From positions 119,516 to 183,515 of the forward strand of contig JAUJOH010000002.1 of assembly GCA_030447745.1 (NCBI GenBank): a stretch of 64,000 bases of DNA, in the 5' to 3' direction. Both the position numbers and the translations under genes were made by a program. Positions 9,336 through 20,332 of this stretch are shown here, piece by piece; the first letter of the stretch is position 1, and every line of letters begins with the position of its first letter. The notes below the pieces were generated by a model. The model saw nothing but the letters and a program-made list of their open reading frames with translations. It made no database searches and was not told the origin of the DNA. This stretch comes from Chloroflexota bacterium (lineage in GTDB: Bacteria; Chloroflexota; Limnocylindria; Limnocylindrales; CSP1-4).

Positions 9336-10016
9336 TCACACCGGATACTGGCGTTCCTCGACCAGCGCGCACCGTCCGCCGACGTCGACGCTGCCGTCGG
9401 CTCCGGGACGAACGCGCAGCTCGGAGCCGACACCCTGGCGGATCACGAGCGGTCGCCCCAGCCGCGCACCGAGCACGAGCGCCGCGCCCCCGGTGGCCTC
9501 GTCCTCGAGGACCGCCGGCTCCCCCGGGAAATATCGCGCCCGCAGGACGCCGATCCCGGCATCCTCCCAGGCCCACGCATACAGGCTCTGGTCGCGGAGC
9601 GGCGGCGGCGTGATGTCCTCGACCTCGCCGGGCGTGGCGTACTCCACGAAGCGAACCTCGTACACCCACTCCGGGCGGGCCCGGATCCAGGTGATGCCGT
9701 CCTCGATCCACGTCAGGACGCGGCCGGCGGGCACCTCGAGCGTCCGTACCGGCCGGCCGAGGTGCCGCAGCAGCCACGCCGTGCCGACTGACGGATGACC
9801 GGCGAACGGAAGCTCGACGCCCGGGGTCAGGATGCGCATCCGCGCGGCGCCGCTCTCGACGCCGTCGACGAACACCGTCTCGCTGTATCCGAGGTCGGCC
9901 GCGGCGGCCTGACGGCGGTCGGCCGGCACGTCGCCGCCGGCGACGAACACGCCGAGCGGGTTCCCGCCGCTGCCGCCGGGCCCGAGGAATACCCGGACGA
10001 CGTGGAGGGTCGTCAA
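9336..10016 (-). CDS. PhzF family isomerase/epimerase
   Basis: VF..GGNPLGV, YSETVFV, ELPFAGHP and EDEATG motifs. TTG start. Confidence 0.85.
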   Translation of the reverse strand: MTTLHVVRVFLGPGGSGGNPLGVFVAGGDVPADRRQAAAADLGYSETVFVDGVESGAARMRILTPGVELPFAGHPSVGTAWLLRHLGRPVRTLEVPAGRVLTWIEDGITWIRARPEWVYEVRFVEYATPGEVEDITPPPLRDQSLYAWAWEDAGIGVLRARYFPGEPAVLEDEATGGAALVLGARLGRPLVIRQGVGSELRVRPGADGSVDVGGRCALVEERQYPV

Positions 10017-17990: not shown

Positions 17991-18866
17991 TCAGCCCGCC
18001 GGGTTCGCCGCGAACTCGGCCACGAACCGGCGGATGACCCGCGTCAGCCGCGGGCCAGCCTCGGCGGCGGCGGCGAGGACCTCCTCGTGGGTCAGCGGCT
18101 GCCCGGTGTAGCCGGCACCCGCGTTCGTGATGAGCGACACCCCGCAGACGTCGAGCCCGGCCCACCGAGCGGCGATGCACTCGAGCACGGTGGACATCCC
18201 GACGGCATCCGCGCCGAACGTGCGGAGCATCCGGATCTCGGCCGGGGTCTCGTACTGCGGCCCCAGCAACCCGGCGTAGACGCCCTCCTCGAGCACCACT
18301 CCCTCCGCCTCGGCGGCCGCCCGGAGCTGCGCTCGAAGCCGCGGGCTCCAGGCGTCGACCAGGTCCTGGAACCGCGCCCCGATGGCGTCTGCATTCCGGC
18401 CGAGCAGCGGCGTGCGCCCGGTCAGGTTGAGGTGATCAGCGATGAGCATCAGCGTGCCGGGCCGGTAGTCGGGGTTCACCCCGCCCGCGGCATTCGTCAG
18501 CACCACGGCGCGCGCGCCGACACGCCGGAAGAGCAGCACGGGCTGAACGACGAGCCCTGGATCGTTCCCCTCGTAGACGTGGAGCCGGCCCTGCAGCAGC
18601 GCGACGGGAACGCCCGCCAGACGGCCGAGCAACAGGCGGCCGGCGTGTCCGGGCGCGGTCGCCACCGGCCAGCCGGGGAGCTCCGCGAAGGGCATGGCGA
18701 CCGGCTCCTCGAGGTCATCGGCCAGACCGCCGAGCCCGGAGCCGAGCACGATGCCGAGGTCCGGTCGGAGGTCCGTGCGGGAGCGAACCGCAGCCTCGAG
18801 CGCGTTCAGGCGGGCGGGCTGGTGCGCCGGGGAGATCGGGCGACCGGCCTCGTCAGCCGTGGGCAT
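17991..18866 (-). CDS. Purine-nucleoside phosphorylase
   Basis: GIVLGSGLG, GHAG, GRLHVYEG, TNAAGG, GPQYET, VGMST and HEEV. GGAGG SD. Confidence 0.93.
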   Translation of the reverse strand: MPTADEAGRPISPAHQPARLNALEAAVRSRTDLRPDLGIVLGSGLGGLADDLEEPVAMPFAELPGWPVATAPGHAGRLLLGRLAGVPVALLQGRLHVYEGNDPGLVVQPVLLFRRVGARAVVLTNAAGGVNPDYRPGTLMLIADHLNLTGRTPLLGRNADAIGARFQDLVDAWSPRLRAQLRAAAEAEGVVLEEGVYAGLLGPQYETPAEIRMLRTFGADAVGMSTVLECIAARWAGLDVCGVSLITNAGAGYTGQPLTHEEVLAAAAEAGPRLTRVIRRFVAEFAANPAG

Positions 18867-18921
18867 ACGGGCCTCCAGGCATGCGTCCAAGGGGAAGACG
18901 GCCGAGGCCCCTGCTTCGCTC

Positions 18922-19093
18922 GCCCGACGGAAGTACCGACACCGGGATGCCGGTCACGTCCCGCCGGGCGAACCCCGCCGCTCCCCTCGCGGGCAGCGCG
19001 TGGCGGGCAGAGAAGCGCCCGAAGCGACCGATCAGAACCTGTGAACCTTGATGCAATCTCGGTGTCGCCGATCCCTGGCGGCCCCTCCGGGCA
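18922..19093 (-). ncRNA. Putative structured ncRNA, long imperfect hairpin with central bubble (6S-like)
   Basis: Nested pairings GCCCGG/TCGGGC, CGACACCGAGATTGC/GCATCCCGGTGTCG, GGTTCAC/GTGACC and GGGCG/CGCCC. Promoter immediately upstream. No credible ORF. Confidence 0.5.
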
Positions 19094-19099
19094 CGACCA

Positions 19100-19128
19100 A
19101 AGGTAGGCTTGTGCGTCCGCCGCGGCAA
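19100..19128 (-). promoter_or_regulatory. sigma70-type promoter for the ncRNA/PNP transcript
   Basis: TTGCCG (19128-19123), 17 bp, TACCTT (19105-19100). Confidence 0.6.
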
Positions 19129-19133
19129 TCGCC

Positions 19134-19208
19134 TTATCCACGAACTTGCCGGGCTGCGTTTCGGCGCTGTCCACGAGATGTGCACCGCTGTTGACAGGCC
19201 GTGGATAA
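19134..19208. promoter_or_regulatory. Cluster of DnaA-box-like 9-mers
   Basis: TTATCCACG at 19134, CTGTCCACG at 19167, TGTTGACAG at 19189 and CGTGGATAA at 19200. Confidence 0.5.
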
Positions 19209-19243
19209 CGACGCGACCGCGGGGCCGGGGAACGACCGCCTCG

Positions 19244-20332
<1,089 letters not shown>

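Follow-up and report, generated by a model that had tools for sequence, protein, structure and literature searches.

The moaA–PNP intergenic region

What is encoded in the long spacer upstream of the purine nucleoside phosphorylase (PNP) gene of this Chloroflexota bacterium? In the window (the whole 64,000-nt stretch of DNA analysed here), 378 nt of the minus strand lie between the stop codon of moaA (19244) and the ATG of the PNP gene (18866-18864). A preliminary description had placed there a rod-shaped RNA, read either as the 6S RNA of a poorly covered lineage or as a novel leader controlling PNP. The flanking genes are:

19244–20332, minus strand: moaA, the upstream gene, whose stop codon bounds the intergenic region (Pfam Radical_SAM and Mob_synth_C)
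17991–18866, minus strand: PNP gene, the regulated gene (Pfam PNP_UDP_1, E = 7e-52)

Relatives of the PNP protein are found in MAGs labelled Limnocylindria or Limnocylindrales, Chloroflexota. The moaA–PNP spacer is kept at the same position, with 70–84% identity, in 35 of 61 related genomes and in 25 of the 28 genera of the same family; the sister family, whose genomes are 1.1 Mb in size, lacks it. When the spacers of 14 genomes are aligned, they have a fixed anatomy, with invariant blocks broken by 1-nt indels. A protein-coding reading of the spacer was ruled out by these indels in conserved blocks, together with the covariation described below.

No family of Rfam 15, and no known riboswitch class, matched the window at the gathering threshold, and a search of positions 18700–19400 at E <= 10 returned noise only and nothing relevant. 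The 6S family RF00013, which the preliminary description had named for checking, was unmatched in both searches. Nine related loci searched against Rfam yielded tRNA only. A weak SECIS_3 match lies inside moaA (19316–19370, minus strand; 19.4 bits against a gathering threshold of 63, E = 0.16) and is most likely due to chance.

A modular leader rather than a rod

The spacer holds a strongly folded RNA on one strand. The 176 nt at 18920–19095 of the minus strand have a minimum free energy of -104 kcal/mol (z = -4.4), better than 200 of 200 dinucleotide shuffles, and the plus strand of the spacer shows no gain over chance (z = +0.85). The complementary segments listed in the preliminary description are all present in this stretch. 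However, the RNAalifold consensus of 12 sequences is a modular structure and contains no rod. It comprises a long hairpin (P1), a three-way domain that holds hairpins P3 and P4, and a helix over the PNP Shine-Dalgarno (SD) sequence.

The modular fold and the rod were each tested on 35 orthologous leaders, with 500 shuffles and slid controls. In the modular fold, 84.8% of the cells are paired (34–50% in slid controls) and 33 pairs are changed on both sides, against 21.3 +/- 2.5 in shuffles; none of the 500 shuffles reached the observed values in any of the five measures. The end-to-end rod has 77.6% of its cells paired (slid controls, 33–53%) and 7 pairs changed on both sides, against 6.3 +/- 1.3; its values were reached by 196 of the 500 shuffles for cells paired and by 228 for pairs changed on both sides. 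Several individual pairs of the rod are broken in 22–30 of the 35 sequences. With no excess of covariation over shuffles and with pairs broken in relatives, the rod is rejected. Covariation across relatives, proposed as a check in the preliminary description, is thus found for the modular fold and not for the shape drawn there. The outer helices of the rod exist because the strands of P4 (CGCCCGG... / ...CCGUCGGGCG) resemble those of P1 (GCCCGGAG... / ...CUUCGGGCG), so that the two hairpins can cross-pair on paper. This likeness suggests that P4 arose as a tandem copy of P1 and then diverged.

Our best reading, held with about even confidence, is that the region is the cis-regulatory 5' leader of the PNP mRNA, in which a generic promoter-plus-hairpin module is combined with PNP-specific parts. 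The generic module consists of a box array at a fixed distance from a promoter, the promoter itself, P1, one or more motif stem-loops and a U-rich tract, and it occurs two to five times per genome through most of the class Limnocylindria. The PNP leader is supported as a conserved, structured RNA because of its covariation, its strand-specific G-U pairs and its syntenic conservation. Of the two roles offered in the preliminary description, that of a novel PNP leader therefore stands in outline, given a conserved and covarying RNA with a PNP-specific hairpin and an SD-pairing helix, but its first hairpin is a generic, class-wide module that had been missed.

The P1 hairpin, its apical motif and its tail

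The promoter-proximal part of the leader contains the following elements:

19017–19092, minus strand: P1, a long hairpin (GCCCGGAG GGCCG ... CGGUC CUUCGGGC), member of a class-wide multi-copy family
19048–19060, minus strand: apical motif GAGAUUGCAUCAA, consensus G-M-GAU-N-R-C-AUC-AA, on a covarying stem
19007–19016, minus strand: U-rich tail GCUUCUCUGC, directly 3' of P1, whose first 5 nt also form helix P2

P1 is 76 nt long: above a 13-bp GC-rich base helix, in which G-U pairs are conserved, lie a middle helix that covaries and an apical stem-loop. The covariance model R1 matches positions 19005–19097 (minus strand) at 96.3 bits. For covariation, 44 distinct sequences from both families carrying the hairpin were aligned, the alignment being fitted to the R1 model: 89.8% of the cells pair (31–47% in slid controls), and 18 of the 26 pairs change on both sides, with 96.8% pairing in the base helix. 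The observed covariation, 0.365, exceeds the 0.142 of the shuffles and was reached by none of the 500. Antisense matches to R1 score about 25 bits, compared with 40–110 in the sense direction, because the G-U pairs lie on one strand only. Judged from these sequence comparisons, P1 is under constraint at the RNA level and is not a DNA palindrome. The stem sequence is conserved far beyond what pairing requires, and the mechanism proposed below does not account for this.

The apical G, GAU, AUC and AA are invariant in 44 of 44 distinct sequences from the two families, within a wider consensus C-N-G-M-GAU-N-R-C-AUC-A-A-S-G (the motif can also be written GAGAUYRCAUCAA). The number of motif hairpins upstream of P4 varies among 57 PNP leaders: 47 have a single one, and two, three, four and five are present in one, seven, one and one leaders, respectively, with a period of approximately 35–40 nt in the tandem copies. 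One to five tandem hairpins with an unchanged loop suggest a modular binding site, and its partner is most likely a protein. The motif hairpins could be the site at which a factor affects P1. When the own genome was searched for complements of the loop motif, no extended target was found; besides the antisense strands of the elements themselves, there were four imperfect complements (2 mismatches). In the PNP leaders L209 (genome G170) and L210 (G227), some motif copies read GGCGAUCGCCUCAAG and carry the self-complementary 8-mer GCGAUCGC, which could enable loop–loop pairing between hairpins.

Across 91 elements, 4–7 of the 10 nt past the P1 stem are T, a base that makes up about 13% of the genome. 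PNP-type copies average 4.5 T, and the remaining copies, a mixed set to which the stand-alone ones belong, average 5.3. A GC-rich hairpin followed by a U-rich tract, as in an intrinsic terminator, is found between promoter and gene, the U tract being interrupted at the PNP leader (GCUUCUCUG). A simple terminator scan, whose loop limit of 8 nt leaves it blind to P1, called nothing in the window. We detected no conserved alternative pairing upstream of the tail that could act as an antiterminator; the only alternatives to P1 pairing are small local hairpins (GCCC-GRAG-GGGC) and the cross-pairing with the downstream P4.

Distribution and genomic contexts of the P1 family

Searches with R1 retrieved matches in 277 of the 301 genomes and 48 of the 49 genera of the window's own family (f1), mostly two to five per genome. 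Nearly every genome of a second family, f4, also matches. Across the class Limnocylindria, 125 of the 201 genomes searched contain matches, and none were found in approximately 220 genomes of other Chloroflexota. P1 is a generic, class-wide module and is not specific to PNP by itself. A MITE- or REP-like repeat was ruled out: where the inverted repeat is imperfect, one strand has conserved G-U pairs, and synteny of the PNP copy extends over 48 genera.

The own genome, which is 77% complete, has four copies of P1, located before PNP, before the pyrophosphatase gene, before a membrane protein gene and, as an orphan, without a gene of its own. Elsewhere, copies precede genes for an MBL-fold hydrolase, a PLP enzyme, an ECF sigma factor, an ACT-domain protein and lipoproteins. 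Two or three modules often occur within a few kilobases, and what follows several of the copies is a convergent gene or, immediately, another module. The copies of G036, a one-contig genome, lie unclustered at 0.42, 1.49 and 2.28 Mb of 3.1 Mb. The openness of reading frames was useless for sorting the downstream contexts, as all frames are open in DNA of 73% GC.

Individual loci vary in detail. The copy before the membrane protein gene (C21, about 9590–9770, minus strand) has boxes, the -10 element TACCGT and an 86-nt hairpin. The protein encoded behind it has 237 aa, with hydrophobic segments at both its N and C termini, and matches no Pfam family, and this pairing of leader and membrane protein gene is kept in many genera of the family. 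The copy before inorganic pyrophosphatase (C19, about 107171–107500, minus strand) has an insertion of approximately 110 nt in the hairpin and is missed by the covariance model; the same arrangement is found in genome G002 (L030). The orphan copy (C22, 72768–72859, plus strand) differs in its apical part (GGUGUUUACAUGGG) and points towards the 3' end of a convergent ORF, whose sequence ends in ...LVKLFTRFRESIA. A sub-type with the apical hairpin GGUG-CUUG-CAUYGG is present at L166 (G036, C1:2281500–2289500), L167 and L168–L173, as two or three modules 0.2–4 kb apart (in G262, two are only 130 nt apart); one of the modules precedes an ECF sigma factor gene and the others face convergent genes. 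At L193 (G374, C2), a tRNA gene (Rfam, 65 bits) lies on the same strand about 60 nt downstream of a stand-alone module.

Some lineages lack the PNP leader. PNP lies directly behind another gene, without a leader, in genus g36 and in families f3 and f4, and family f2, the one with 1.1-Mb genomes, has neither PNP nor P1. In g36, which belongs to the same family as the window, PNP overlaps and directly follows a cytidine deaminase-like gene (L212–L214), and none of the 16 genomes of this genus among those listed in the family search had an R1 match at the threshold used. The whole module system appears to have been lost in this genus.

The copies facing convergent genes indicate that P1 may also exist as a free small RNA. 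In family f4, 4 of the 13 copies examined (in four genomes) share a locus that is flanked by a divergent phosphatase-like gene on one side and by a convergent gene on the other, and the unit there is therefore a stand-alone transcription unit of about 80 nt. It is possible, though on balance we consider it unlikely, that P1 is throughout the gene of a trans-acting sRNA that ends at the U-rich tail, with paralogous sRNAs serving, for example, as protein decoys through the loop motif. The copies at PNP, ppa and the membrane protein gene would then be sRNA genes that lie upstream of mRNAs by chance or by fusion. Such a role would suit the f4 locus and the other copies without a gene of their own, as well as the promoter and boxes that accompany each copy, and versions with three to five motif copies resemble sponge RNAs. 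However, some genera have neither room nor signal for a second promoter before the start codon at the PNP, ppa and membrane protein loci; only about 45 nt separate the hairpin from the start codon in G024. The PNP copy is, moreover, joined to P4 by P2, which uses the tail itself, and an sRNA would find no extended complementary target for its loop in the own genome. An sRNA function is compatible with the PNP leader and does not exclude it.

The PNP-specific domain and the SD helix

Downstream of P1, the leader contains parts that are not found in the generic module:

18973–19009, minus strand: P3, the variable hairpin of the three-way domain, with 8 of 13 pairs changed on both sides
18920–18971, minus strand: P4, a long hairpin, with helices 7 and 8 paired in 90% and 98% and 10 pairs changed on both sides
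18933–18955, minus strand: apical 23-mer of P4, GACCGGCAUCCCGGUGUCGGUAC
18869–18911, minus strand: SD helix, GGGCCUC with GGAGGCCC (anti-SD strand at 18903–18911), from the RNAalifold consensus, with helices 9 and 10 paired in 74–79%

The three-way domain is closed by P2 (GCUUC/GAAGC), in which the first 5 nt of the U-rich tail pair with GAAGC at 18913–18917, according to RNAalifold and the pair counts. In P3, the sequence drifts and the pairing (helices 5 and 6) is kept. Of 23 genomes of the family, 19 contain the 23-mer of P4 in a single, perfect copy. It is located at PNP wherever its position could be checked and is invariant in more than 12 genera; G170 has a variant with a compensated change. 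By these sequence comparisons, P4 is the PNP-specific part of the leader. The SD helix covers the PNP Shine-Dalgarno sequence GGAGG (18872–18876), extends to 3 nt before the ATG and is found in many genera, not all.

Two features recall a riboswitch: the three-way junction covaries and lies immediately before the helix that sequesters the SD, and P4 occurs once per genome, is tied to PNP and has 23 nt without variation. The domain would then recognise a purine-related compound (base, nucleoside, ribose-1-phosphate or phosphate) as an aptamer and control the SD helix, and P1 would merely be a generic promoter-proximal module. We regard this as improbable. No known riboswitch class matches, the domain is linked to one gene only, and in some genera PNP lies behind P1 without P4. 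Hardly any unpaired nucleotide of the junction is conserved; conservation is instead concentrated in the upper helix and tetraloop of P4, a pattern more typical of a contact with protein or RNA.

The promoter and its DnaA-box-like words

Upstream of P1, the spacer contains a promoter and four words that resemble DnaA boxes:

19200–19208, minus strand: word 1, TTATCCACG (TT[A/G/T]TCCAC in relatives), with a core invariant in 14 aligned genomes
19189–19196, minus strand: word 2, TGTCAACA, degenerate here and TGTCCACA in relatives, read directly and from the alignment
19167–19175, minus strand: word 3, in reverse orientation, CGTGGACAG, read directly and from the alignment
19134–19142, minus strand: word 4, proximal and in reverse orientation, CGTGGATAA, 5 nt upstream of the -35
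19100–19128, minus strand: promoter, with -35 TTGCCG (19128–19123), a 17-nt spacer and -10 TACCTT (19105–19100)

The promoter is present as given in the preliminary description and is conserved in the 14-genome alignment, where relatives have GTTGACC-N17-TACCGT. A simple sigma-70 scan of the window does not call it. In 81 elements, the -10 is at a fixed distance from the hairpin, with TAC[C/A]GT ending 3 nt before the start of the model match. From this spacing, transcription would start at approximately 19094–19092, the first bases of P1.

Within word 4, GTGGATAA is invariant in the 14-genome alignment. We surveyed the 150 nt upstream of 81 non-redundant elements, with downstream stretches as the control. 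At least one box was found in 79 of them and at least two in 61, and no box was present in 71 of the 81 control stretches. A reverse GTGGAnAA is located at -45 to -41 from the start of the model match in 73 of the 81 elements; further reverse boxes cluster at -90/-80 and forward boxes at about -115. The dnaA–dnaN spacer of the own genome (C4, 78385–78875), its probable oriC, contains GTGGATAAcc, GGTGGACAAc and GTGGACAtc near an AT-rich patch. The box words of the leader match those of the presumed origin of the organism because the same words occur in that spacer. The same spacer also holds TGGTCCACA and an A/G-rich AT patch, gtaaagagaaagagagaagata. The protein that binds the boxes is probably DnaA, as judged by sequence likeness.

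An array of three or four such words in a fixed arrangement at every copy, shared with the putative oriC, might alternatively act at the DNA level, as sites that titrate DnaA or resemble DARS or datA. The promoter and hairpin would then only transcribe across the arrays or insulate them, with no function of the RNA. This appears very unlikely given the RNA-type constraints on the hairpin, namely conserved G-U pairs on one strand and compensatory changes, and given a loop motif that is invariant where its copy number varies. The copies in the one-contig genome are, in addition, unclustered.

Proposed regulation of PNP

What was seen directly in this system is its conservation, structure, copy number, contexts and positional coupling, and from these we infer how the cis-regulatory PNP leader might operate. 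A box-binding protein, most likely DnaA, would set the activity of the promoter. P1 and the U-rich tail would act as a leaky intrinsic terminator, giving either a short RNA of approximately 85–90 nt or read-through into PNP. Binding of a trans-acting factor, most likely a protein, to the motif hairpin or hairpins would shift the balance of termination or the stability of the RNA. In transcripts that read through, P4 and the SD-pairing helix would gate the translation of PNP. Like these steps, the transcription start of the PNP leader, a 3' end at its tail and transcription beyond that tail are predictions from the DNA.

Comparison with known systems

DnaA-regulated promoters include dnaA, nrdAB and guaBA in Escherichia coli, and clusters of DnaA boxes are known in Bacillus subtilis. 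The PNP promoter resembles them in having at least two close TTATCCACA matches, of the type found in the organism's own presumed origin, in both orientations by the -35 and upstream of a nucleotide-metabolism gene. In contrast to these promoters, the array of predicted DnaA sites is rigidly coupled to a structured RNA and repeated at several loci, and we know of no described case of such a coupling.

PyrR sites (RF00515) are likewise conserved loop motifs on leader hairpins of nucleotide-related genes, with several copies per genome, next to a terminator-like element or ribosome-binding site. P1 differs from them in its motif, the lack of an Rfam match, its broader gene set and its stand-alone copies. 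The Csr/Rsm RNAs (RsmY, RsmZ and CsrB) resemble P1 in that a short motif recurs in hairpin loops, on one hairpin or on several in tandem, and is present at many loci in both free small RNAs and mRNA leaders; however, the P1 loop consensus G-M-GAU-NRC-AUC-AA has no conserved GGA. CsrA was ruled out as the partner of the motif, as csrA (PF02599) is absent from 11 of the 12 genomes tested, including the own genome.

The RNA arrays of type III toxin–antitoxin systems (ToxI) consist of tandem repeats and a terminator, followed by a gene for a ToxN-type endoribonuclease. The tandem units of about 35–40 nt upstream of a leaky terminator and a gene are similar, but the genes downstream of P1 encode ordinary enzymes (PNP_UDP_1, Pyrophosphatase), and most copies are single units (47 of the 57 PNP leaders). 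As no ToxN-type toxin gene lies downstream, P1 was not assigned to this class. P1 does not match SRP RNA (RF00169), and canonical SRP RNA is found elsewhere in four of five relatives (73–77 bits). Terminator-embedded aptamers such as the HMP-PP riboswitch and the thiS motif (PMC6478431) similarly have conserved nucleotides inside a hairpin followed by a U tract; for P1, there is no common pathway that points to a ligand.

A role of the leader as the lineage's 6S RNA, which would bind RNA polymerase holoenzyme as a rod of about 180 nt with a central bubble, is so improbable as to be effectively excluded: the role is unfilled (RF00013 matches 0 of 37 related genomes, and control genomes do match) and the element is a GC-rich, highly paired non-coding RNA with its own sigma-70-type promoter, but RF00013 is unmatched, the segments can be drawn as a rod in the own genome only, the rod failed the structure test, and the conserved unit is a hairpin of approximately 80–95 nt, multi-copy, variable in architecture and mostly fused to mRNAs as a 5' leader.

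By analogy, the closest functional counterparts are PyrR-type leader hairpins, the repeated-loop RNAs of the Csr/Rsm type and DnaA-regulated promoters. The general kind of RNA to which P1 belongs is known, and the family itself is undescribed. We found nothing relevant in the literature on Limnocylindria ncRNAs or on DnaA-box-linked sRNAs.

Implications for the Limnocylindria

For annotation, some 350 nt of 'empty' intergenic DNA are accounted for and a false 6S candidate is removed. The class concerned is a large, almost unstudied group of soil and freshwater Chloroflexota, and it has gained an undescribed, covariation-supported RNA family, present in hundreds of genomes and with no Rfam match. 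The fixed union of DnaA-box-like sites, promoter and structured RNA is unusual, and the unit is repeated before genes of nucleotide metabolism and others. If the boxes are bound by DnaA, they would offer a testable link from replication initiation to RNA-based gene control, and the varying number of motif hairpins (one to five) in orthologous leaders is a natural handle for finding the binding partner.

Tentatively, and with low confidence, the copies may together form a class-wide RNA–protein regulon, in which DnaA-box promoters drive hairpin RNAs (decoy sRNAs as well as leaders), a regulator reads the loop motif, and the replication initiator is coupled to PNP, ppa and other genes. Such a regulon would be functionally analogous to Csr/Rsm and unrelated to it. 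Were it to exist, the state of the initiator would be coupled in Limnocylindria to nucleotide salvage through PNP, to the removal of pyrophosphate through ppa and to the expression of other genes.
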